DNA from: an uncultured bacterium
GTDB lineage: Bacteria > Hydrothermota > UBA3072
Assembly (NCBI GenBank): GCA_964523975.1
Contig: CAZGBM010000002.1
Location: 1,324-65,323, forward strand
Direction: 5' to 3'
Length of the DNA: 64,000 nt
Both the position numbers and the translations under genes were made by a program. Shown here one piece after another: positions 8,433-46,651 of the stretch; within the stretch, counting starts at the first letter, position 1; each line of letters begins with the position of its first letter. The notes under the pieces are model-generated. The model searched no databases. It was not told the DNA's origin and worked only from the letters and a program-made list of their open reading frames with translations.

Positions 8433-8654
8433 TTAAGTTATAACCTTTTTGATTTCGGGTATTTTTGCCTTTAAAGCTTTCTCGACAAATCCCTTCAATG
8501 TCATTTGAGCCATCGGACAACCTCCGCAAGCGCCTGTAAGTTGCAATTTTACCGTTCCGTCATTAGATACGCTCAACAATTTTACGTCTCCACCGTGACT
8601 TTTAAGGTACGGTTTAATGTCGTTGGCTAAAACTTTTTTTACTTTTTCTTCCAA
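8433..8654 (-). CDS. NifU-like Fe-S cluster scaffold domain protein (Nfu type)
   Basis: 73 aa with a CGGC Cys pair (TGACGGCPMAQMTLKG), characteristic of the NifU C-terminal/Nfu domain. Confidence 0.7.
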   Translation of the reverse strand: MEEKVKKVLANDIKPYLKSHGGDVKLLSVSNDGTVKLQLTGACGGCPMAQMTLKGFVEKALKAKIPEIKKVIT

Positions 8655-8866
8655 TTTTCCTCCCTAACCTATTTAAGGTCATATACTTTAGTATAACAAA
8701 TAAGTTGACTCAAGTCAAGTGATTCTGCGAACCAGTTTATTGGTAAAATTGGTTAAGAGGAAAACTACAAGATTTATGTATTTTAGGATGGTTTTATGCG
8801 AAAAGTAAAAGGCGAACAACTAATAGCTTAGGGGTGTTGTGTGTCTAGGGTATTCTTCTCTTATTC

Positions 8867-8897
8867 TTGACATATTCGTGTTTTTGGTTATAGTTAT
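8867..8897 (+). promoter_or_regulatory. sigma70-type promoter upstream of ugd (TTGACA-N17-TATAGT)
   Basis: TTGACA at 8867-8872 and TATAGT at about 8890-8895, roughly 45 nt upstream of the ugd ATG. An AGGAG-like RBS (tggaggaaaagtATG) lies between. Confidence 0.45.
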
Positions 8898-8938
8898 TTT
8901 GTTTTTGAGCAAAATTTGAGCAAAAATGGAGGAAAAGT

Positions 8939-10240
8939 ATGAAAATTTGTGTTATAGGTACCGGATATGTAGGATTGGTGGTTGGAACAGGCCTCTCCGA
9001 GACCGGGAATAAAGTTATCTGTGTAGATAGTGATGAAGAAAAAATACAAAAATTAAAAAACAATATAGTACCAATTTATGAGCCTGGGCTGGAAGAACTA
9101 ATTAAGAGAAATCAAAGAGAATATCGTCTTTCTTTCTCCACATCAGTTAAAGATGCCGTTTCGATTTCGGATATTATTTTTATTGCCGTCGGGACCCCGG
9201 AAAAGGAAGACGGATCTGTAGATTTATCTCATGTATATGCTATTGCCGAAGAAATTGGGGAAGCAATGGGCAGTGAGCATAAAATTATAATTAACAAGAG
9301 TACTGTACCTGTAGGAACAGCGAGAGAAGTCGAGAAAAAAATAAAAAGTAAAACCAAAGCAAGTTTTGACGTTATTTCCAATCCCGAATTTTTAAAAGAG
9401 GGTAGTGCCGTTCAGGATTTTATGAAGCCGGATAGAATTATAATAGGGATGGATAATAAAAAAGTAGCCGAAAAAATAATGGAGCTTTATGAACCTTTCG
9501 TAAGAACCGGAAACCCGATTATTGTTATGGGAATCGAGAGTGCTGAGATGACGAAATATGCAAGTAATACGATGCTCGCAAGCAGAATATCTTTTATGAA
9601 CGAAATAGCAAATCTTTGCGAGAAAGTGGGAGCTGATGTTGAAGAAGTTAGAATAGGTATGGGAAAAGATCCGAGAATCGGGTCAAAATTTCTTTTTCCT
9701 GGAATTGGCTATGGAGGGTCATGTTTCCCTAAAGACGTTAAAGGGTTGGTTCAAAAAGGGAAACAATATGGGCTCCCGATGAAATTCTGTGAAGGCGTAG
9801 ATTTCGTGAACGAATCTCAGAAAAAATTAATCGTAAAAAAAATAAAAGCAAGGTTCAATAAACTGAAAGGGAAAAAAATGGCAATTTGGGGTTTATCTTT
9901 CAAGCCTCAAACTGACGATATGAGAGAGGCCCCTTCTGTTGTTACATTAAACCTTCTTCTTTCCGAGGGAGTTCATATAAGTGCGTATGACCCTCAAGCT
10001 ATGGAAAATGCAAAGGAAATTTTCGGAGACAGAATAAAATACTGTGCTACGCCATACGATTGTTTAAAAGGAGCCGAAGCTCTTATCGTTCTTACAGAGT
10101 GGAATGAGTTTAGAAATCCGGATTTCGAGAAAATCGGCAACCTGATGGCAGGGAAGCTGATATTTGATGGCAGAAACATCTATGACCCTGTCAGGGTAAA
10201 AGATTCGGGATTCGAGTATTACGGAATAGGTAGAGGTTAA
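8939..10240 (+). CDS. ugd: UDP-glucose 6-dehydrogenase
   Basis: N-terminal Rossmann motif VIGTGYVGLV and the catalytic-Cys region GGSCFPKD. Length 433 aa. Confidence 0.88.
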   Translation: MKICVIGTGYVGLVVGTGLSETGNKVICVDSDEEKIQKLKNNIVPIYEPGLEELIKRNQREYRLSFSTSVKDAVSISDIIFIAVGTPEKEDGSVDLSHVYAIAEEIGEAMGSEHKIIINKSTVPVGTAREVEKKIKSKTKASFDVISNPEFLKEGSAVQDFMKPDRIIIGMDNKKVAEKIMELYEPFVRTGNPIIVMGIESAEMTKYASNTMLASRISFMNEIANLCEKVGADVEEVRIGMGKDPRIGSKFLFPGIGYGGSCFPKDVKGLVQKGKQYGLPMKFCEGVDFVNESQKKLIVKKIKARFNKLKGKKMAIWGLSFKPQTDDMREAPSVVTLNLLLSEGVHISAYDPQAMENAKEIFGDRIKYCATPYDCLKGAEALIVLTEWNEFRNPDFEKIGNLMAGKLIFDGRNIYDPVRVKDSGFEYYGIGRG

Positions 10241-20322: not shown

Positions 20323-21234
20323 CTAAATAATACAATTAACAAGAGCAATGATGATATCTGAATCATGAACGCGTAGACTGTCGAAGGATAGATTTTTTGT
20401 CATAGAATTTAGATACCATGTGCCCTCTGTGTCGATAGCAAAATAATATTCGGCAACGATAAGATTCAATGAAGAATGTATTTTTAAAAGGGATTCCAAA
20501 ATTTTTTCAGGTATCTCGGAACATTTCATTTTCTTGCCGTGCCGATTACCGTCAATAGAAGTACAAAAAATTTGATTTCCTACTGCACTTATACCGACAA
20601 ACATATTGCCGGGCAATTCACGAACCCGTACTTGATTGAAATATGTTGGGTACCGCTTTAGAAGGACTTCGCTCAATTCCATTTCGAAATATGGGTTTTC
20701 TCCCATGTCTACAAAAGATGCCAAAACCCCCTCATTTAACAATTGAGAAGCCACCATACCCGTTTCTATTATCGAATAACCCGGAACATCTATATCATAC
20801 GCTTGTGCTTTACAATACAACTCCGAAATTGTCGGCATGGCCCCGGATAATTGGTTGCTGCCGGGAGGATTAATAACGGGGCATTTCAAACTTGATAGCA
20901 TGCTGTACCATAAAGCAGTCGTCTCGGTTGCCGCATATTTTGCGTCTCTCTCGGACATATACATCCAATGCTCGGGGACAAAACCGTCAAACTCGACCAG
21001 TACGCCCTCTATTTCTTCCGAGCTTATTTTTTCGGAATGAAACAACAATTTGAAATATTCCTCTTTTTTATTCATATTGAACGTAACGGAAACATCGTTT
21101 GCGATATCGCATTGACGAAGAGTTATTACCTCTTTTCCCAACCTTTGTAGGGAATTTTTCAATTTTTCTGACACTAAGGAATTATAATCTCGCAATATTA
21201 AAATCATTATATTTCTAAAAGATCTGGCGACCAA
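20323..21234 (-). CDS. ATP-grasp ligase, microviridin/RimK-like (first of tandem pair)
   Basis: N-terminal small domain (ILILRDYNSL...GKEVITL), then a WY motif, then CPVINPPGSN, then an ATP-grasp-like C-terminal half. Adjacent and co-oriented with the second ATP-grasp gene. Confidence 0.6.
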   Translation of the reverse strand: MVARSFRNIMILILRDYNSLVSEKLKNSLQRLGKEVITLRQCDIANDVSVTFNMNKKEEYFKLLFHSEKISSEEIEGVLVEFDGFVPEHWMYMSERDAKYAATETTALWYSMLSSLKCPVINPPGSNQLSGAMPTISELYCKAQAYDIDVPGYSIIETGMVASQLLNEGVLASFVDMGENPYFEMELSEVLLKRYPTYFNQVRVRELPGNMFVGISAVGNQIFCTSIDGNRHGKKMKCSEIPEKILESLLKIHSSLNLIVAEYYFAIDTEGTWYLNSMTKNLSFDSLRVHDSDIIIALVNCII

Positions 21235-21285
21235 AACGGAACCTTAACGAAAAACAGGCATGATATTCTCATTTTTGCCGATTAT

Positions 21286-21636
21286 TTATATCTTTTTTTG
21301 ATTTTTCAAACCGGTTTTGAATACTTTAAAAGTTTCCGGAGTTTTTTTATTGAAAAAAGGCGGGAAACTACCGTGGATTTCTTTTAGTAATTTACCGTTA
21401 GATGCGTCAAATAAATAATATCGACACCTGTGCCCCCAGTTATACCCGGATTGTTCATCAATAAAAACAAAGTAACTGGGCTTTTCAAATTTTATTTCCT
21501 GGTCAACTATATCCAGTATCTCTTCTTTATGGTATATTTTTTCATCCAAATACATTACCGATGAATCTTCGCCTGAGCATTCCTCAGCATATATTTTTGC
21601 AACGTTTTTTTTAATCGTGTTTTTAACATCCCCCAT
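21286..21636 (-). CDS. small protein paralogous to the N-terminal domain of the adjacent peptidase; putative ATP-grasp substrate, precursor or regulator
   Basis: 116 aa. Residues ~25-100 align at roughly 45% identity with residues ~25-105 of the 532-aa peptidase, e.g. YFVFIDEQSGYNWGHRC versus HYVFIDEQPGMNWGHAC. Ends in FPPFFNKK followed by the tail TPETFKVFKTGLK. Confidence 0.6.
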   Translation of the reverse strand: MGDVKNTIKKNVAKIYAEECSGEDSSVMYLDEKIYHKEEILDIVDQEIKFEKPSYFVFIDEQSGYNWGHRCRYYLFDASNGKLLKEIHGSFPPFFNKKTPETFKVFKTGLKNQKKI

Positions 21637-21650
21637 TTTCTGTTTCTAAA

Positions 21651-21679
21651 ATTATAAGAGAATCATATCAGGCTGTCAA
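21651..21679 (-). promoter_or_regulatory. consensus sigma70 promoter (TTGACA-N17-TATAAT) directly upstream of the 116-aa gene
   Basis: On the minus strand the sequence reads TTGACAgcctgatatgattctctTATAAT. The -10 ends about 14 nt before the ATG at 21636. Confidence 0.55.
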
Positions 21680-21712
21680 TCCTTTAGCTGTCAGCGAGAA
21701 TGTCTATCGGAA

Positions 21713-21756
21713 CGATTATGGCAGGAGATAACTTATAGTATCTCCTGCCATAATCG
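21713..21756 (-). other. 18-bp perfect stem / 8-nt loop hairpin between the peptidase gene and the small-protein gene
   Basis: CGATTATGGCAGGAGATA-acttatag-TATCTCCTGCCATAATCG. No U-tract follows on the minus strand. Candidate RNA processing or attenuation element. Confidence 0.5.
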
Positions 21757-21809: not shown

Positions 21810-23408
21810 TTATTTTTTCTTATCCTTAAATGCTTTCCCTTTAATATCGGGACGCACATTGGATTTTATGAAAGGCGTCAGCTTATTTACCGCTTTCTCC
21901 AATGCCGTTATTCTGGTACTCAATGACTGAACTTCTCTACTCAACTTTGCACTCTGTGCAGCGAACCCGGATCGAGCCCTCATCAATTGCTCTTCTCGAA
22001 TAGCAGGTATATCGACGTATGAATCGATTTCCTTCTCGAACTCCGATGTGAACATTTTTGCCTCCATCCCGAATTCTTTGAATTCTTTCATTACTTCCTT
22101 ATAGCGATCCTTCAACATTTCTTTGATACCTGACTTTTCAAATTCTTTGAACTCCTTTAGAAGTTTGATAGAGGTACAACAGCTACTCAAGAAGACAGAT
22201 TTCGAAAGGTCGGTTGACGATTCTTGCATCTGCGGGTCGTCTTCGCTTAATGCGAAATCAAAGGCTTCGTATGCAGAAATTTTGCTGTCCAGATTATCAT
22301 CAGGGGAGACGGCAAGCGCTGAACTGTCACCGCGAACACCCGCCATAGCAGAAATCCAGAGTTCTATCCAGGGGTCGAAAAACCAACCGCCTGCCGAAGA
22401 TACTTTTTCCGGAACCGCGGTTTGAATAACCGTCTTATCTGCCGGACTTCCATTAATAACCGGTGGTATAAACGAACCCGAACTGCATTGCTCCATTACA
22501 GCCAGAAGAGTTCTGAATCTTGGTAACGCGGATAGATCGGCTACAAAATCTTCCGCCCAATATTCTCCATCAGGGGTTGACATATAACCTTCGTCCGGCG
22601 TACCGCCCGGTCGGGTACTGTACCAACCATGATTATTCGTAAAGATGTACAAACAATCGTGACTTCCAATCCTCGTAGCAAGTTGACTTATTGCGTTCTG
22701 GAACCCCGTTCTGGTCCCATGTTCATTTACCTGTAGACGAAACGGCGTACCATCTACGGGATAGTCAATTGGATTGGCAAGGTCTTGTGCCGGTTCACAG
22801 AAGGCATCCCAACAGGATATATTCCAGTTGACGTTTCCGTCATGATTACAAACATAGATATCTCCGGGATTAAACCCATAAACATCCAGGAGTGTTCGAT
22901 ATAGAAATTCGAAGTCGTTAACATGTCTACAATTGGAAGAGCCCGAAAACATTATAGCATAACGGTTGCCTTGTAGCTGCCACTTAAAAGGCAGTGGTCC
23001 AAGTAGTTTGTATCCGGTTAGTTTTGCGGGTTCAAGCGGTATTCTATTCATGCGTTTATTCTTATACAGTTTCGCAATTTTCGGAACCCTTAAAGACTCA
23101 AATGTATCGGAAGGGTTTCGATTCAAGAACGGAGGAAATTTTCCGTCTATTTCGGATATAAGCTTTCCCTCTTTAGCGTCATACAATAAATGCTGGCACG
23201 CATGCCCCCAGTTCATACCGGGCTGTTCGTCAATAAAAACATAATGAGCAGGTTTTGCGACAGATATCTTCCTGTCGAAAACGTCTATTTTCGCACCCTT
23301 CTCGAATACTTTACCTTCTATGTACATAGCCGGATCTGCATGCTCACCTCTTTTGCTGAAGTATCGCTTGCTCACGTCTTCTACTATTTTTTTCTTAATG
23401 TTTTCCAT
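21810..23408 (-). CDS. legumain/clostripain-like (clan CD, caspase-fold) cysteine peptidase with N-terminal paralog-domain and C-terminal coiled coil
   Basis: Catalytic-type motifs FTNNHGW (His-Gly) and VMEQCSSGSF (compare legumain EACESGS), plus the block AIMFSGSSNCRHVNDFEFLYRTLLD-YGFNPGDIYVCNHDG (compare legumain AGSxGxxNYRHQAD...). Start placed at MENIKKK, 8 nt downstream of an AGGAG RBS; the ORF track extends to 23444. The C-terminal ~120 aa are K/E-rich coiled coil. Confidence 0.6.
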   Translation of the reverse strand: MENIKKKIVEDVSKRYFSKRGEHADPAMYIEGKVFEKGAKIDVFDRKISVAKPAHYVFIDEQPGMNWGHACQHLLYDAKEGKLISEIDGKFPPFLNRNPSDTFESLRVPKIAKLYKNKRMNRIPLEPAKLTGYKLLGPLPFKWQLQGNRYAIMFSGSSNCRHVNDFEFLYRTLLDVYGFNPGDIYVCNHDGNVNWNISCWDAFCEPAQDLANPIDYPVDGTPFRLQVNEHGTRTGFQNAISQLATRIGSHDCLYIFTNNHGWYSTRPGGTPDEGYMSTPDGEYWAEDFVADLSALPRFRTLLAVMEQCSSGSFIPPVINGSPADKTVIQTAVPEKVSSAGGWFFDPWIELWISAMAGVRGDSSALAVSPDDNLDSKISAYEAFDFALSEDDPQMQESSTDLSKSVFLSSCCTSIKLLKEFKEFEKSGIKEMLKDRYKEVMKEFKEFGMEAKMFTSEFEKEIDSYVDIPAIREEQLMRARSGFAAQSAKLSREVQSLSTRITALEKAVNKLTPFIKSNVRPDIKGKAFKDKKK

Positions 23409-23496: not shown

Positions 23497-23526
23497 ATAG
23501 TATAATAATTTTACATAATTTGTCAA
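23497..23526 (-). promoter_or_regulatory. putative promoter of the peptidase/ATP-grasp operon (TTGACA-N18-TACTAT)
   Basis: The minus strand reads TTGACAaattatgtaaaattattaTACTAT, about 90 nt upstream of the ATG at 23408. Confidence 0.3.
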
Positions 23527-24494: not shown

Positions 24495-26381
24495 CTAATC
24501 TTCAGCTATTATAGTACAGTTTTTCCCTTCTCCTTTTGCAAAGTAAAGAGCTCTGTCGGCAGCGTCTATGAGATCTGTTTTATTATGCGCGTGTTTAAAC
24601 AACTCAGCTACACCTATTGAAATCGTAACGTTAAACTTAAGCCCATCCGGAGAAATAAACTCTTTTTTTTCTATAGAACTACGCAAATTCTCTGCAATTT
24701 TATAACCCTCCATGGATGTGGTTTTCAGCAGAATAATGGCGAATTCTTCTCCTCCATATCTTGCAAGTATATCAGACGACCTTACGCTGTCTTTCATCAG
24801 CTTGCCAACCTCCCGAAGAATAAGGTCTCCGTTCTGATGACCAAACCGGTCGTTTATCATCTTAAAGTTATCGAAATCTATCATAAGCAAAGTGACAGGT
24901 TCCTCGCCGCGCTCGGCTGCTTTAATTTTATCTTCCAATATCTCCTGAAAAAACCGGTGATTATAAGCTCCGGTTAATCCATCTTTATACCTTGCTTGCT
25001 CATACAAAATAGCTTTTTCTACAGAAGAAGAAGCTATATTAGTAATAATATCGAGCAAATTCAAATCTTTCTCGTTGAAAATTGCTTTATTCTTTGAAAG
25101 AAGTAGTACCCCTCCTTCTACACCTCCCTTGAAAGGTGAAAACATTAGGGATTTAGCACCAAAATCTCTCTCTTCGGGAAACAAAATGGGTCTTTTAATT
25201 TCACCGGTAAGGTCTTCTTTACAAAAAGAAAGATTTTTCTCAAGATAAGTTGCAATGATGCTCTTTCTAAGCCCCTGATAATATCGTCTTCCGTCTTCCT
25301 CTGTGACGTGATACTCGTTGCCTTCTTTAAGCAGAAAAATCGTCCAGACGTCCTTAAAACTCTCTTTTATTGTCTCAAATATTCTTTTTCTGACTTCTTC
25401 CAATTTAATATCTCCTGTTACTCTTTCCGTAAGATTTCGAAGATAACGTAACCTGAAAACCTCAAGCATTGAAAAGTTAATATGATTATAAAGAGAAAAC
25501 AGGGTTGACAAACCTTTGACAACACTTGCTATTATCTCTTTATCTCTCTCTTCAAAAGGTATTTTCTCGATTCTGTCTACAACTAAAATTCCCATAACTT
25601 TATTATTGAACTCAATAGAACTCGCAATAAAACATTTTATATTCTCTTCGTTTTTATAATAACCCAAGTTCGGTGAGGAATTATTGAAATCATTATTAAC
25701 CAAAATACCGGAGTTTTTTACATACCAGGAGAGAGGGCCCTTATTGAGCGAAACCATTTCTTTTATCTCCCCACCGCTTTTTGCTACATGGACCTGAAAT
25801 CTATCAAGTTTATCATCTTTTATCAAAAGAACAACACTAAAGGGATTAAATAATCTGACTATTATATCCAGACTTGCGGATAAAGAGTCATGAAATTTAT
25901 CCGGTATAGCAGCCGGGATATCTTTTTCTCCGGTAATCCCCGTTCTCATTTCTTCTCCCTCGACTTTTATTTTTTTGATTGGATCAATATCTTCTTTCCC
26001 AAGTAATTTAGGCTTTACCCTGTATAAGAAAATTACCGTACCATAAAAAATCAAGTAAGGTATAAATTGTAGTTCGCCAAATAATGAAAATAACGGCAAA
26101 ATTAGCCACCAAAACTTAAGCTTTAATCCTCTCTTATTCAAGATAAAAATAGCAGGAATATATGCAACAGCAAGCGGAGACGACATACCTCCTGCCACCT
26201 GCACGGCAAAAGCTATGCCGGTAAGCGCAAAATAGTAAGATATATCCTCGATTTCTATGATAAAAAAATACAAAACGGCAAGTAGCACAACCGGAATCCA
26301 AACAGGTATTGCTAATGGGAAAGCGACTAGGAGCAGATACCCCAAAAAGAATATAACGGCAGCGCACTTATATAGATTCAT
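24495..26381 (-). CDS. membrane-anchored GAF-domain diguanylate cyclase (GGDEF)
   Basis: N-terminal multi-TM region and central GAF-like domains. The C-terminal GGDEF domain carries RYGGEEF and the downstream DRALYFAKGEG block. Confidence 0.8.
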   Translation of the reverse strand: MNLYKCAAVIFFLGYLLLVAFPLAIPVWIPVVLLAVLYFFIIEIEDISYYFALTGIAFAVQVAGGMSSPLAVAYIPAIFILNKRGLKLKFWWLILPLFSLFGELQFIPYLIFYGTVIFLYRVKPKLLGKEDIDPIKKIKVEGEEMRTGITGEKDIPAAIPDKFHDSLSASLDIIVRLFNPFSVVLLIKDDKLDRFQVHVAKSGGEIKEMVSLNKGPLSWYVKNSGILVNNDFNNSSPNLGYYKNEENIKCFIASSIEFNNKVMGILVVDRIEKIPFEERDKEIIASVVKGLSTLFSLYNHINFSMLEVFRLRYLRNLTERVTGDIKLEEVRKRIFETIKESFKDVWTIFLLKEGNEYHVTEEDGRRYYQGLRKSIIATYLEKNLSFCKEDLTGEIKRPILFPEERDFGAKSLMFSPFKGGVEGGVLLLSKNKAIFNEKDLNLLDIITNIASSSVEKAILYEQARYKDGLTGAYNHRFFQEILEDKIKAAERGEEPVTLLMIDFDNFKMINDRFGHQNGDLILREVGKLMKDSVRSSDILARYGGEEFAIILLKTTSMEGYKIAENLRSSIEKKEFISPDGLKFNVTISIGVAELFKHAHNKTDLIDAADRALYFAKGEGKNCTIIAED

Positions 26382-26512
26382 ATGAAAATAATAATTTTCT
26401 ATCTAAATATTGTCAAGGATAAAGATAAAATTTAGTGTATTTTTTGAAAAATTTTTTTATCTTACCTCTTGACATAATATTAATTTTGACAAATAATAAA
26501 CAGTACATTACT

Positions 26513-27856
26513 ATGAAAACGAGAAAGGAAAGCCAGAACGAATTCGACTGGAAGCAAATAAAGAAGGAACTCCAGAAGGAAATTAACGAATCTGCTTTTA
26601 AAGCTTGGTTTGCAAATATGGATTTGGAAGAGTTAAAGGGTGAGGATGTGTATTTTAACATTCCAAACACGTTTACCCAGCACTGGATAAAAGAACATTT
26701 TATGAATAATTTAACCTCTTCAATAAAAGAAGTTACGGGGAAACTTTATAATGTACATTTTCTTGTAAACAAAAAAACAAATTTGGAAACAAATGAACAA
26801 CAAGAAACAGAAGAGGAACAACAGAAAATACAAAAACCTTTTTTACATGATAAATACACTTTCGAGAACTTTGTTGTGGGCGATAATAGTAAGTTCGCCT
26901 ATGCTGCAGCTATGGCTGTCTCCAACGCGCCGGGCAGAGAATATAACCCTCTCTTTATATACGGGGGAGTCGGATTAGGGAAAACACATCTATTACAAGC
27001 AACTGGAAACAGAGTCTACTCTCAATATCCCAATCTTCGTATACTTTACACTCAAACAGAAGAATTTCTTAATGAAATGATAAAGTCTATTCAGGAATAC
27101 TCGACAGTACAATTTAAACGAAAGTACAGAGAAATAGACCTTCTTTTAATTGATGATATCCATTTTCTCTCGGGTAAAGAAAGATTACAGGAAGAGTTCT
27201 TTCACACATTCAACGCTCTCTTTGAAGCAAAAAAGCAAATAGTTATAACTTCCGACAGGCCCCCCAAGGAGATTTCTGGCCTTGAAGAAAGGGTTATTTC
27301 TCGTTTTCACTGGGGTTTAATGGTAGATCTTCAGCCTCCTGATTACGAAACGCGTTTAGCTATTCTGCGTTCTAAAATACAAAGCGATAATATTCAAATC
27401 AGCGACAGTGTAATTAATTATATAGCCTCCAATATAAAAAACAACATTAGAGAATTAGAAGGGTGTTTAATAAAATTATTGGCGCACGCTTCTATATATA
27501 AAACAGATATTACCGTAGAACTCGCCAAAAAAGTTCTAACTGATTTTATTAAAGAAAAAGAAAAAAGAATAACACTTGAAAAAATCATTAAATCTGTTTC
27601 CGAGTTTTATAATATAGATGCAGATGAAATAAAAGGAGGTAAAAGATCCAAAAGCGTCGCTCAAGCTCGTCAGATTGCCATTTACCTTTCAAGACACTTA
27701 ACAAATCTTTCATTAAAAGAAATCGGTAACGGCTTTGGGAAAAGAGACCATTCTACAATTCTACATTCTTTCAACAAAATCGAAAATTTAATGCGGAAAA
27801 ACAATAGGATAAAAGGGGATATTTCAACCATAAAAAGTAAATTGACGGAAACTTAA
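26513..27856 (+). CDS. dnaA: chromosomal replication initiator protein DnaA
   Basis: AAA+ Walker A motif GGVGLGKTHL and domain IV (KRSKSVAQARQIAIYLSRHLT...STILHS). Start taken at MKTRK at 26513; the ORF track's upstream extension is hydrophobic junk. Confidence 0.9.
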   Translation: MKTRKESQNEFDWKQIKKELQKEINESAFKAWFANMDLEELKGEDVYFNIPNTFTQHWIKEHFMNNLTSSIKEVTGKLYNVHFLVNKKTNLETNEQQETEEEQQKIQKPFLHDKYTFENFVVGDNSKFAYAAAMAVSNAPGREYNPLFIYGGVGLGKTHLLQATGNRVYSQYPNLRILYTQTEEFLNEMIKSIQEYSTVQFKRKYREIDLLLIDDIHFLSGKERLQEEFFHTFNALFEAKKQIVITSDRPPKEISGLEERVISRFHWGLMVDLQPPDYETRLAILRSKIQSDNIQISDSVINYIASNIKNNIRELEGCLIKLLAHASIYKTDITVELAKKVLTDFIKEKEKRITLEKIIKSVSEFYNIDADEIKGGKRSKSVAQARQIAIYLSRHLTNLSLKEIGNGFGKRDHSTILHSFNKIENLMRKNNRIKGDISTIKSKLTET

Positions 27857-29135: not shown

Positions 29136-29327
29136 TTAAACAACTTTCTTAATTTTATTTGCTTTCAGGCATTTCGAACAAACGTATACTTTCTTGATTT
29201 CTTTATTAATTTCTGTTTTTATCCTATGCAGGTTAGGTTTATGTTTTCTTCTGGTTTTACGTTTAGAATGACTAATTAAATTACCAAAAAAAGCAATTTT
29301 TCCACATACGTAACATTTTCTTCCCAT
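29136..29327 (-). CDS. rpmB: 50S ribosomal protein L28
   Basis: Matches the L28 pattern MGRKCYVCGK...GNLISHSKRKTRRKHKPNL. Confidence 0.75.
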   Translation of the reverse strand: MGRKCYVCGKIAFFGNLISHSKRKTRRKHKPNLHRIKTEINKEIKKVYVCSKCLKANKIKKVV

Positions 29328-29449
29328 TATCACTCCTTTTTCCCGTTATAATAGAAGAAATATTAATTTTGTCAATGAATTTTTTGTATTAAATACCGCA
29401 AATTTAAACCATTGACTTTTCGTATTTTTGTTCTATACTTAAAAGAATA

Positions 29450-41353: not shown

Positions 41354-43471
41354 TCATTTAAGAACGGCTATGGTAACGCCTTCTCCTCCTTCAAAGTGTG
41401 GTGGAGTTTCTATGCCTTTTACCCTTCTGTCCTTTTTTAGTTTTTCGCAAAGCATATTGCGTAATATCCAGCTCCCTTTTCCGTGAAGTATTCTTACTGA
41501 ATTATAATTCGCAAGGATTGCTTTGTCAAGAAATTTGTCGGTAGCTTCCCAGGCATCTTCTTTTGTCATTCCGCGGACTGAAATTTCTAACGGAACGTCC
41601 ATATCTACATTATAGTTGATTCTCGATGGTTTTGGTGAGTGTTTGAGGGACTTCACGCCGTTTTTTTTCTCTTTAGGGGAGGCGCCGGCGAAGGCTTTTT
41701 TGTATTTTGTTATTGATTCTTTGGAAGCTTTTGACTCTTTTATTTCTTTTATGGTTTTTTCGACTGTTGCGCGTGCCCCGGTTAATATATCCGATGCTTT
41801 TTCTTTTGCTTCCTTGAGAATTTTTTTCTCTTCTTCTTTGACATTTTTTATTTTTTTGTCGTATTCTTTCTTTAATTCGGAAAACTCTCTTTTAAGGTTA
41901 AGTATTTCTTGTTCTTGTTCTCGCAACTTTTTGTTTCTTAGAGAAAGTTCTTCTATTAAATTTTCAACCTCAAAAATTTCAGAGTCTACGAAATTTTTTG
42001 CCTCGTCGATAATTTGTTGCGGCAGACCGAACTTCTCGGCAGTTGCTATCGCTTTTGAACCTCCGGGGATTCCGATTTGTAAATGATAGGTCGGGCCGTT
42101 TTCATATTCCATCGCGCCGTTAATCATCCCTTCTTGTTCTTCAACATAAAATTTCAATGGGCTTAGATGGGTTGCTGCAATAACAAGGCTTTCTTTGGAT
42201 TTTAATGTGTTAAGCAAAGCAATCGAGAGAGCGCTTCCCTCAACCGGATCTGTATTGCCTCCGAGTTCGTCCAGCAGTATAAGGTTTTTATCATCTGCCT
42301 CGCTCAGAATTTTTTTAAGTCTAACGATGTATGATGAAAAAGAAGATAGGTTTTCTTCCATTGACTGCTCGTCTTCTATGATCCCTGATATGTTTGTAAA
42401 AGAGCCGATTTTTGTTCCTTCTTTTGCCGGGATAGGGATTCCGGCTAACGAGGACAGGACATTTATACCCACATTTTTAAGCAGTACGGTTTTTCCGCCT
42501 GCGTTTGGACCGCTGATAAGCAGAATTCTCTCATTTGTTCCGAGTTCCAGGTCGATAGGTTCGACATTTTCTTTTTCTCCGAGCAAAAGAGGATGGTAGC
42601 ATTCTTTTAATATTAAATCGCTGCCTTCCGTGAATTCGGGGATGATACATTTGAATTCCTCAGCGTACTTGTTTCTCGACTTGAGCGAGTCTATCTTTAT
42701 CAATATACTGGTGTTTTTGTCGATAGAAGGGAAGTTTTCCTTTATTTCTCCGGTTAGATATTGTAAAATTCTTTTCTTTTCTATATCTATATCTTTTTCC
42801 AACTCCGCAACTCTGTTGTTAAGCGTGACTATTGCGCTTGGTTCTATGAAAGCCGTATTCTGAGTACGGGAAAGGTCCACCATTATTCCTTCTATTTCGT
42901 CTTTTCTCTCGTATTTAACAAGCAGAACTGTTCTACCCAGGCGGGTTGTTATAATTTTATCCTGTAGGAGATTTTCTTTTTCTTTTAATAATTCATTGAG
43001 TTTTTTTTCGATTTTATCGGTAGCGGACGACTTTTCGTTGTAAAGGGATTTTAACAAAGGAGTAGAGGATGGTTTGACAACCCCTGTTTCGTCTATGTAT
43101 CTGTTTATTTCTTCCCTGAGAGGCAAAATAGGATTAAGGGCACCGGCTAATTCTTCAAGTGTTTTGTTGTCTCTGAGAACATTTTTGACTTCTTCGGATA
43201 AATCCAATAATTTTCTATAATAAAGGAGTTCTTCTCCTGATAATATTTCCCCTCTTTCCGGGGCTCTTTCTCTTTTTAAAATATGTAGACCGGGAATGAG
43301 ATGTATGATTTGTTTGCTTTCCGCAAGTTGCTTAAAGGCAAGCAGCCTGTCTTGTTTCGAAATATTTGGCGTTAAGCTTAAAACTGCGGCTCTGCCGGGG
43401 TCCGATTCGGCGTACACGGAGATCTTTTCCAGAAGTACATTTAATCCTATCATGTTTGATAGGGCTTTCAT
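41354..43471 (-). CDS. mutS2: endonuclease MutS2
   Basis: MutS ATPase Walker A motif ISGPNAGGKT, a long coiled coil and a C-terminal Smr domain. Confidence 0.85.
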   Translation of the reverse strand: MKALSNMIGLNVLLEKISVYAESDPGRAAVLSLTPNISKQDRLLAFKQLAESKQIIHLIPGLHILKRERAPERGEILSGEELLYYRKLLDLSEEVKNVLRDNKTLEELAGALNPILPLREEINRYIDETGVVKPSSTPLLKSLYNEKSSATDKIEKKLNELLKEKENLLQDKIITTRLGRTVLLVKYERKDEIEGIMVDLSRTQNTAFIEPSAIVTLNNRVAELEKDIDIEKKRILQYLTGEIKENFPSIDKNTSILIKIDSLKSRNKYAEEFKCIIPEFTEGSDLILKECYHPLLLGEKENVEPIDLELGTNERILLISGPNAGGKTVLLKNVGINVLSSLAGIPIPAKEGTKIGSFTNISGIIEDEQSMEENLSSFSSYIVRLKKILSEADDKNLILLDELGGNTDPVEGSALSIALLNTLKSKESLVIAATHLSPLKFYVEEQEGMINGAMEYENGPTYHLQIGIPGGSKAIATAEKFGLPQQIIDEAKNFVDSEIFEVENLIEELSLRNKKLREQEQEILNLKREFSELKKEYDKKIKNVKEEEKKILKEAKEKASDILTGARATVEKTIKEIKESKASKESITKYKKAFAGASPKEKKNGVKSLKHSPKPSRINYNVDMDVPLEISVRGMTKEDAWEATDKFLDKAILANYNSVRILHGKGSWILRNMLCEKLKKDRRVKGIETPPHFEGGEGVTIAVLK

Positions 43472-45714: not shown

Positions 45715-45786
45715 TTGAAAATAAAAAAGGGATCGAACGAAATGATTTCGCCCAATCCCTCTTTTTATTTACTTAAAAGGTCACCC

Positions 45787-46275
45787 TTACTTTATCTGTT
45801 TCAGGTCTTCTTCTATCGCCTGAAGGTCTTCTTCGTGTTCGACTTCGTCCGCGAGTATCGATTCTACCATATTGGAAGTAACAAGATCTTTATCACCCAG
45901 GAAGTCACGAAGCTTGCTGTAAACTTCTATCGCGCACTGCTCTCCTTTTATGTTCTGCTCGACTATTTTCTTTACTTTGGGGTCGCCGGGAGCATCGTAA
46001 CCGCAATTGGTCATTTTATACCAGTCTTCCGGTTTGAGAATCGGAACGCCGCCAAGCTGGATTATCCTGTCCACGAGCATCCCTGCGTGTCGCAGCTCAT
46101 CTCCTGCATGTTCGACCAGTTCCGCTACAACGGCTCCTCTCATCGGACCGACAATCACTTTAGAACCTATCCAGTATTGATAATAAGCAAGCCACTCGTC
46201 TGCCAGAGCTTTATTGAGCAACTCGATAAGTTTTTTTATATCAACTCCTACGATTTCTCTTCCTTTCGTGCCCAT
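45787..46275 (-). CDS. ferritin-like diiron protein (Dps/bacterioferritin-like)
   Basis: Ferritin-like four-helix ligand pattern (ELVEHAGDELRH ... EVEHEEDL). Start taken at MGTKG, just downstream of an AGGAGG RBS; the ORF track extends to 46419. Confidence 0.55.
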   Translation of the reverse strand: MGTKGREIVGVDIKKLIELLNKALADEWLAYYQYWIGSKVIVGPMRGAVVAELVEHAGDELRHAGMLVDRIIQLGGVPILKPEDWYKMTNCGYDAPGDPKVKKIVEQNIKGEQCAIEVYSKLRDFLGDKDLVTSNMVESILADEVEHEEDLQAIEEDLKQIK

Positions 46276-46651
46276 CTTTCCTCCTTTTTTGGGATTTTCT
46301 TTTCCGTTTAGTATGATGACTAAATAAGACAATTTGTCAACCCTCCGCACTAAGAAAATTGCCACAGAGACACAGAGAGCACAGAGAAAAAACATATTAT
46401 TTGTGTTAAAAATTTCCACCCTACAACACCAAATATTTAGACAGGATTAACACATACGATTAAATTGTTGGTCTGTTAGTCCGTTGGTCTGTTAAAAAAA
46501 CACACCAACTCACTAACACGCTAACTAAAGAAGTTATTGACATATTTTACAATCAAGATATAATTATACAGAAATTAAGAAGAGAAAGAAAGAACCAATG
46601 TGGTTTCTTTCTAATATGATAAATAAGGAGTGAAAAACTAAAGAATTAATT

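Follow-up and report, generated by a model that had tools for sequence, protein, structure and literature searches.

The window analysed here, a stretch of 64,000 nucleotides from contig CAZGBM010000002.1 of an uncultured bacterium (Hydrothermota; UBA3072), carries on its minus strand a four-gene module encoding a legumain-like cysteine peptidase, a 116-aa protein and two ATP-grasp-like proteins, which we call g1 and g2. The peptidase gene and the 116-aa gene are separated by a spacer of 173 nt that contains an 18-bp perfect stem-loop and, nearer to the small gene, a consensus sigma-70 promoter. Our preferred reading, which we consider probable, is that this spacer forms the boundary of two transcription units inside the conserved four-gene module, with the roles of both elements at the transcript level being the part that we infer.

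The promoter and the stem-loop of the spacer

The first-pass annotation of this DNA described a TTGACA-N17-TATAAT promoter on the minus strand, and the description holds exactly, as the site at 21679-21651 agrees with the sigma-70 consensus at 12 of 12 hexamer positions and stands far above chance. Relative to expectations calculated from the window composition (37.6% G+C), exact consensus sites with N16-18 spacing are found four times in the 64-kb window against 0.12-0.15 expected, and N17 sites with at most one mismatch are found five times against 0.78 expected, a number that none of 100 shuffles reached. Between the -10 hexamer and the ATG (21636) of the 116-aa gene lie 14 nt. This geometry would place the transcription start at about 21643-21645, some 7 nt past the -10 hexamer and in agreement with the ~21645 named in the first-pass annotation, leaving a predicted leader of ~8 nt that has no Shine-Dalgarno sequence.

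The promoter also belongs to a type that this genome uses and is placed to drive the gene downstream of it. In the window, 14 sites match at least 11 of the 12 consensus positions, and 11-12 of the 14 are intergenic and lie upstream of a gene on the same strand. The genes behind such sites include dnaA, rpmB, a GGDEF gene, yjbQ and the peptidase gene of the module itself, and at several of them the ATG follows closely on the end of the -10 hexamer, after 15 nt at dnaA, 20 nt at rpmB and 6 nt at the GGDEF gene. In this genome the arrangement before the 116-aa gene is the usual grammar of gene starts, and the short distances suggest that leaderless or very-short-leader mRNAs are common in it. 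DnaA of the window shares 82-91% identity with proteins named candidate division WOR-3, which marks the host as a WOR-3-type bacterium.

The hairpin was likewise reported correctly as an 18-bp perfect stem with an 8-nt loop, and it is non-random. All 18 pairs are Watson-Crick, eight of them G-C, and the fold calculation proposed in the first-pass annotation gives -30.2 kcal/mol on the gene strand for the stem-loop plus short flanks, while the whole 173-nt spacer folds with a z-score of -5.2 relative to shuffled sequences. No other perfect inverted repeat of the window is longer than 11 bp, which leaves this one ahead by 7 bp, and the chance expectation for such a repeat in the window is ~3e-5. 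Its arm sequence is single copy within the window. A metagenome pattern scan for the arm (GATTATRGCAGGRGATA) returned at least 120 single-arm chance matches, and none among the matches listed folds into the hairpin, although such a scan is weak evidence and uninformative on dispersed copies. An Rfam scan of the spacer gave sub-threshold chance matches to microRNA-hairpin models only.

Both elements are preserved in a diverged relative. Among 64 peptidase homologs from a large protein collection, a long spacer at this position occurs in one other lineage only, represented by the loci L004, L005 and L006, whose peptidases are 77-80% identical to that of the window. In the three flanking genes, the window and L004 share the base at 104 of 258 four-fold degenerate sites (40%), a level at which neutral sequence is close to saturation. 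Both hexamers are nonetheless 12/12 identical in L004, as are the blocks AAGGA-TTGACA-G and TATAAT-TTTAG that contain them, whereas the spacer between the hexamers has diverged and measures 16 nt. This pattern of consensus hexamers with a spacing of 17 ± 1 nt, in which the hexamers seem to be under purifying selection and the spacer free, is what the footprint of a functional promoter would be expected to look like, and it comes from one independent comparison, window versus L004. Because the hexamers are conserved in a diverged relative and the spacer is not, and because the genome puts near-consensus sites before genes, we judge the promoter of the 116-aa gene very likely to be functional.

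The L004 stem keeps 17 of the 18 pairs, 12 of them unchanged, two through double compensatory changes (G-C to A-U and A-U to G-C) and three as G·U pairs, with the terminal pair lost. On the opposite strand these three G·U pairs become C·A mismatches, and the L004 hairpin folds at -28.0 kcal/mol on the gene strand versus -18.2 kcal/mol on the opposite one. Compensatory change has maintained the stem, which is under structural selection; the strand difference points to selection on RNA of the sense transcript, though it is suggestive only.

The conservation of both elements effectively refutes the notion that they are chance features of AT-rich DNA or the scar of a repetitive extragenic palindromic (REP) sequence or of a miniature inverted-repeat transposable element. 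Promoter-like hexamers are indeed common at low stringency, sites with at least 9 of 12 matches numbering 53 against 48.5 expected, but the exact consensus sites and the 18-bp repeat lie far over expectation, and the arm has no second copy in the window from which a repeat scar could be argued.

The strand asymmetry in L004 also bears on whether the palindrome acts on DNA, as an operator for a dimeric regulator, or as an antisense terminator on the plus strand. A terminator scan flags the hairpin on the plus strand only, because the T-rich tail ATTTTAT is present there, the gene strand having instead an A-rich tract that precedes the stem and that is also found in L004. A weak plus-strand promoter-like site (10/12) lies at 21623-21652, and the centre of the palindrome, ~90 bp upstream of the predicted start, would be a plausible activator position. 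We nevertheless regard a role of this kind as very unlikely, given that DNA symmetry in L004 is broken at 4 of 18 positions, in the G·U versus C·A manner described above and at a cost of ~10 kcal/mol on the opposite strand, that arms of 18 bp are far longer than operator half-sites, and that there is no plus-strand gene here to terminate.

The spacer as a probable boundary between transcription units

In the arrangement that we favour, the peptidase gene would be transcribed from its own near-consensus promoter (Table 1), and its mRNA would bear the stem-loop, which starts 54 nt past the peptidase stop codon. There the stem-loop would act as gene-strand RNA, as a leaky, non-canonical terminator and/or as a 3' end that blocks exonucleases. 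The consensus promoter, whose -35 hexamer lies 33 nt beyond the hairpin, would start a new, almost leaderless transcript spanning the 116-aa gene and then, by read-through, g1 and g2. Production of the small protein would in this way be independent of that of the peptidase, and its level probably higher. A weak stem just past the stop codon of the small gene (-5.6 kcal/mol, with 7 T within its 10-nt tail and no clear counterpart in L004) is a possible weak attenuator before g1 and could add to the uncoupling. The free domain, for its part, may bind or restrain the peptidase, by analogy with SpeB/Spi and the staphostatins.

An earlier proposal held that a strong internal promoter and/or a processing hairpin boosts the transcript of the small gene relative to those of the enzymes. 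The promoter half of this proposal survives, as the promoter is conserved and the layout would uncouple the small gene from the peptidase. The hairpin half does not fit, since the hairpin occupies about -69 to -112 relative to the predicted start, upstream of the promoter, and hence lies outside the transcript that the promoter makes; it resembles a 3' end of the peptidase mRNA more than it does a booster of the small gene.

It is also possible, though doubtful, that the module is a single operon with an internal promoter, in which peptidase transcription reads through the spacer and the hairpin serves as an RNase III or RNase E/G processing site, as a 5' stabiliser of the small-gene and ATP-grasp segment or, in the manner of the malE-malF stem-loops discussed below, as a 3' stabiliser of the segment before it, giving the two halves unequal half-lives with no stop of transcription. 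The missing U-tract speaks for this arrangement, a long perfect stem suits a double-strand-specific nuclease, and the RNA-level conservation of the stem is in keeping with it; besides, the genes of relatives abut, with gaps of 3-52 nt that imply ancestral co-transcription. Conversely, a stem of 18 bp is on the short side for a classical RNase III site, and on present evidence a read-through operon is inseparable from leaky termination, from which it differs only in whether the polymerase stops.

Several observations weigh against a boundary of two transcription units with an inhibitor-like small protein behind it. The hairpin is a stable, G+C-containing stem-loop soon after a stop codon, but there is no U-tract on the gene strand directly 3' of the stem, where the tail reads UUCCGAUAG (window) or CCAUGGAAU (L004), so that it does not qualify under E. 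coli rules as an intrinsic terminator of peptidase transcription. The argument from strand draws on three substitutions, all from one and the same comparison (about p = 0.125), and conservation is known from two lineages only, as the closer relatives L001 and L078 carry a single base difference, outside both elements, and provide no covariation information. Relatives further away share the gene order and have spacers, 50-52 nt long in L012, L013 and L017 and 3 nt in L014, that contain neither element, which makes the hairpin and promoter a lineage-specific addition, dispensable for the gene system. Finally, the small protein has an invariant Asp, an invariant His and a near-invariant Cys, which are unexplained by a pure inhibitor role and could mean a catalytic or metal-binding one.

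Compared with known boundaries in which a sigma-70 promoter comes after a terminator or stem-loop between co-directional genes, and with internal promoters of operons, the spacer shares consensus hexamers with a 17-nt spacing right before a start codon, a stem-loop tens of nucleotides past a stop codon, and the retention of both elements in a relative, and it differs in having a stem without a U-tract and a leader of ~8 nt without a Shine-Dalgarno sequence. A second parallel is offered by the REP stem-loops of E. coli malE-malF, intercistronic hairpins that set differential mRNA stability. As in that system, an intercistronic hairpin could keep 3' exonucleases off the upstream segment, and expression levels could be uncoupled by it; unlike in that system, the window hairpin is single copy and is followed by a strong promoter, so that uncoupling would not be achieved by RNA decay alone.

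To our knowledge, no promoter or terminator has been mapped in the uncultured WOR-3-type host. The hairpin and promoter are chiefly of value as one of the few comparative hints on WOR-3-type promoters, pointing to E. coli-like hexamers and very short leaders. A hairpin followed by a promoter is an ordinary way to separate transcription units, and the surrounding gene system, which is uncharacterised, is a more interesting lead than the regulatory layout itself.

Table 1. Positions of the module genes and of the regulatory elements around them in the window
Feature	Positions	Strand	Remarks
Promoter-like site of the peptidase gene, TTGACA-N16-TATACT	23499..23526	minus	11/12 consensus positions
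Legumain-like (C13-like) peptidase gene, 532 aa	21810..23408	minus	ATG at 23408 preceded by an AAGGAG Shine-Dalgarno sequence
Stem-loop, 18-bp perfect stem and 8-nt loop	21713..21756	minus	arms 21713-21730 and 21739-21756, loop 21731-21738
-35 hexamer TTGACA of the 116-aa gene	21674..21679	minus	identical in L004, inside the kept block AAGGATTGACAG
-10 hexamer TATAAT of the 116-aa gene	21651..21656	minus	17-nt spacer to the -35 hexamer; identical in L004
116-aa gene	21286..21636	minus	free-standing paralog of the peptidase N-terminal domain
Weak stem GGCA...TGCC	21248..21279	minus	inner ATGA/TCAT, then UGUUUUUCG; just past the small-gene stop codon
g1, 303 aa (or 294 aa)	20323..21234	minus	strongly diverged ATP-grasp-like protein; faint TIGR04187 match, E 2.5e-4
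g2, 320 aa	19404..20366	minus	RimK-type ATP-grasp ligase; PF08443, E 5e-10

The 116-aa protein, the peptidase and the ATP-grasp genes

The 116-aa protein aligns with residues 13-120 of the 544-aa open reading frame (ORF) of the peptidase, which are residues 1-108 of the 532-aa peptidase, at 40% identity over 108 residues (E 1e-29). Its start codon is secure, because the N-terminal helix, which starts at residue 4, lines up with the N termini of all the paralogs (MGDVKNTIKKNV, MENIKKKIVEDV and MQDIKNKIKEDV). An exhaustive profile search was needed to recover the family, as a word-indexed search and a first genome scan returned the query alone; the profile search yielded 246 representatives, which are either free-standing proteins of 100-140 aa or the N-terminal domain of larger Peptidase_C13 proteins. 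F58, D60 and H69 are invariant in the family, and P63, N66, C71, Y73 and P92-P93 are nearly so. The AlphaFold2 model is confident, with a predicted local distance difference test (pLDDT) score of 90.6 and a predicted template modelling score (pTM) of 0.84, and consists of one helix packed on seven strands. A Foldseek search with this domain against the PDB gave no match. Its resemblance to cystatin is a weak fold-class match only, PepSY, NTF2 and VirB8-like folds scoring alike, and no sequence similarity to cystatins was found. No model in Pfam, NCBIfam or PADLOC covers the domain, and the PADLOC defence models gave no match.

We screened the neighbourhoods of 62 genome loci, together with metagenomic loci, using profiles that represent the small domain, the core of the peptidase, g1 and g2, and two arrangements emerged. 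In Type A, found at 13 genome loci ranging from Bacteroidales to Bathyarchaeia and Microcystis, a peptidase carrying the N-terminal domain is followed by g1 and g2 in tight packing. In Type B, found at 49 genome loci in bacteria and archaea, a free small gene adjoins a peptidase carrying the N-terminal domain, usually upstream of it, with no ATP-grasp gene within 6 kb. The free small gene is absent from 11 of the 13 genome loci that contain ATP-grasp genes, and within Type A it occurs, between the peptidase gene and g1, only in the clade of the window (the window, L004, L012/L013/L016/L017 and L014). This distribution identifies the peptidase, and not the ATP-grasp genes, as the recurring partner of the small protein. 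The small proteins of the window clade are nearest to each other (60% and 42% identity) and then to Type-A N-terminal domains (36-41%), not to the free proteins of Type B, which suggests a renewed origin of the free copy inside Type A.

On these grounds we infer that the small protein acts in trans on the peptidase, as a partner or regulator and possibly as an inhibitor of the prodomain kind. Proteases paired with small inhibitors offer a parallel: in Streptococcus pyogenes, the protease SpeB is accompanied by Spi, an adjacent small inhibitor homologous to the prodomain of SpeB, and the staphopains are accompanied by staphostatins, co-transcribed cytoplasmic inhibitors. The window resembles SpeB/Spi in that a small paralog of the N-terminal domain of a cysteine peptidase is encoded alongside that peptidase, and this homology between a small protein and the N-terminal domain of the adjacent protease recurs as a pairing in 49 other genome loci. 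It differs in that the window peptidase is legumain-like (clan CD) and not papain-like, that the N-terminal domain is here a putative cleaved prodomain and the small protein a putative inhibitor, and that two ATP-grasp genes are attached in the window clade.

The first-pass annotation had instead taken the small protein for the precursor of a ribosomally made peptide with post-translational modifications (RiPP). In its graspetide form, this proposal would have the internal promoter and a processing hairpin raise the precursor transcript above those of the tailoring enzymes. The nearest relatives of g2 are graspetide maturases, a peptidase adjoins, the promoter is real and strong, and a weak stem with a U-run follows the small gene, all of which speak for the proposal. 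We consider it improbable, however, as g2 falls far under all curated cut-offs, the hairpin is not within the promoter's transcript, and the 116-aa protein has a confident fold and is a paralog of the peptidase N-terminal domain. The positions conserved in it (F, D, P, N, H, C, Y and PP) do not make up the Ser/Thr/Lys plus Asp/Glu core of a short leader-core peptide. Nor does it co-occur with ATP-grasp genes, given the 49 loci with a free small gene and no ATP-grasp gene and the 11 of 13 ATP-grasp loci without a free gene; what the ATP-grasp genes co-occur with is a Lys/Glu-repeat tail of the peptidase. The associated suggestion that the small protein has a stoichiometric role rather than that of an enzyme may still hold, with the protein binding or regulating the peptidase in place of serving the ATP-grasp enzymes as a substrate. 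Withdrawing the RiPP-precursor call matters in practice, as it would have pointed genome miners at the wrong peptide.

The peptidase consists of the N-terminal domain (~residues 1-108), a catalytic domain and a helical tail of Lys/Glu repeats. It scores 19.8 bits against PF01650, for which the gathering cut-off is 22.8, and homologs that share the N-terminal domain pass that model (for example P0077, at 40.4 bits). Its top Foldseek matches are legumains (E 1e-8, probability 1.00), and the matches include a legumain-cystatin E/M complex, plant asparaginyl endopeptidases and ligases, and the glycosylphosphatidylinositol (GPI) transamidase. In addition to this caspase/legumain fold, the peptidase has the His-Gly...Cys dyad of family C13: the His-Gly and Glu-x-Cys-x-Ser-Gly-Ser motifs are conserved, and within H260-G261 and E306-x-C308-x-x-G311 the His, Gly, Glu, Cys and second Gly are invariant across 35 homologs.

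The C-terminal ~120 codons of the peptidase gene (21810-22170) encode the repeats KEFKEF...KEVMKEFKEF. Other Type-A peptidases have repeats such as IKEWKEPKEWKEIKEWKEPKESLEPKQVFEPKQV in P0025 and KEWKEPKEWKE... or EPKQVxEPKQV... among homologs P0003-P0052, and Type-A tail repeats are followed by a conserved RLE...KLTPFI...RPD motif. Type-B peptidases have different C termini, with a Trp-rich IWWWWCW motif or with CARDB, FG-GAP or secretion-tail domains. Judging from this co-occurrence, the Lys/Glu tail of the peptidase appears to be a better candidate substrate for the ATP-grasp enzymes than the small protein.

The best NCBIfam matches of g2 are graspetide maturase families, namely TIGR04187 (E 4.7e-40), MvdD and MvdC, all below their curated cut-offs (137.7 versus 350, 92 versus 475 and 85 versus 425 bits, respectively). 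A Pfam search with g1 gave no match. The g1 gene always precedes or adjoins g2, and its product could be a degenerate partner subunit of g2; partner-dependent graspetide synthetases have been reported (PMC13097080) and offer a possible parallel. The module is similar to graspetide clusters of the microviridin type in having a RimK-type ATP-grasp enzyme, two tandem ATP-grasp-like genes and a cluster peptidase, and dissimilar in that it has no short leader-core precursor, the C-terminal tail of the peptidase being its only Lys/Glu repeat. The main texts of two large graspetide surveys (PMC8939145; PMC13097080) mention no association with C13 peptidases or legumains, and a literature search for a combined C13 and ATP-grasp system found no relevant paper.

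An unlikely idea is that the four genes constitute an undescribed, horizontally mobile system in which the peptidase, a cytoplasmic enzyme, is restrained by its own N-terminal domain and by the separately transcribed free copy, and in which the ATP-grasp enzymes cross-link the peptidase tail in place of a distinct precursor peptide. If true, the four-gene system would be a graspetide core fused to its protease, and the free copy would explain the consensus promoter. The analysis has in any case exposed a widespread, unannotated pairing of a legumain-like peptidase with a free copy of its N-terminal domain in bacteria and archaea, and a subgroup where the peptidases bear Lys/Glu-repeat tails and ATP-grasp ligases are found with them.

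Further features of the window and of related loci

Type-B pairs (L029-L077) are present in cultured strains, among them Alloprevotella tannerae ATCC 51259 (L067, 5926-7659), Thiothrix fructosivorans (L064, 5908-8510) and Pseudarcicella hirudinis (L034, 5875-8147). Where the small gene precedes the peptidase gene, a G+C-rich stem-loop follows the small gene in L037 (1695-1752), L049 (3991-4148) and L063 (6301-6346), and stem-loops of the same type follow it in L070 (3798-3885) and L076 (3963-4090). Such spacer stem-loops of Type B could favour the small transcript over the peptidase transcript. In L009/L020 (Candidatus Sabulitectum; 8497-9428), two extra genes encoding proteins of 172 aa and 124 aa lie between g1 and g2, and neither has a Pfam match or a match to the small-domain profile.

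A hidden short precursor ORF in the 173-nt spacer was considered and rejected, as no spacer ORF of at least 20 aa was found in the window and those of L004 are not conserved. Next to the promoter of the 116-aa gene, two copies of the heptamer TGACAGC lie 15 nt apart on the minus strand (21672-21693); the second copy overlaps the -35 hexamer, and the upstream copy is kept at only 4 of 7 positions in L004.

Downstream of a minus-strand gene (45787-46419), a bidirectional terminator composed of an A-tract, a 20-bp stem and a T-tract (-24.9 kcal/mol) lies at ~45736-45780, so canonical terminators with a U-tract do exist in this genome. The gene-end stems of the window comprise this one classic U-tract terminator and a few stems without a U-tract, from which no rule is derivable.

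Short-leader, near-consensus promoters of the GGDEF gene, dnaA and rpmB are located at 26381-26416, 26469-26513 and 29327-29375. A second perfect TTGACA-N17-TATAAT site is present on the minus strand at 41501-41529, within a long ORF (41354-43471) and 149 nt upstream of the next gene start (41352), and may be an internal promoter of that downstream gene.

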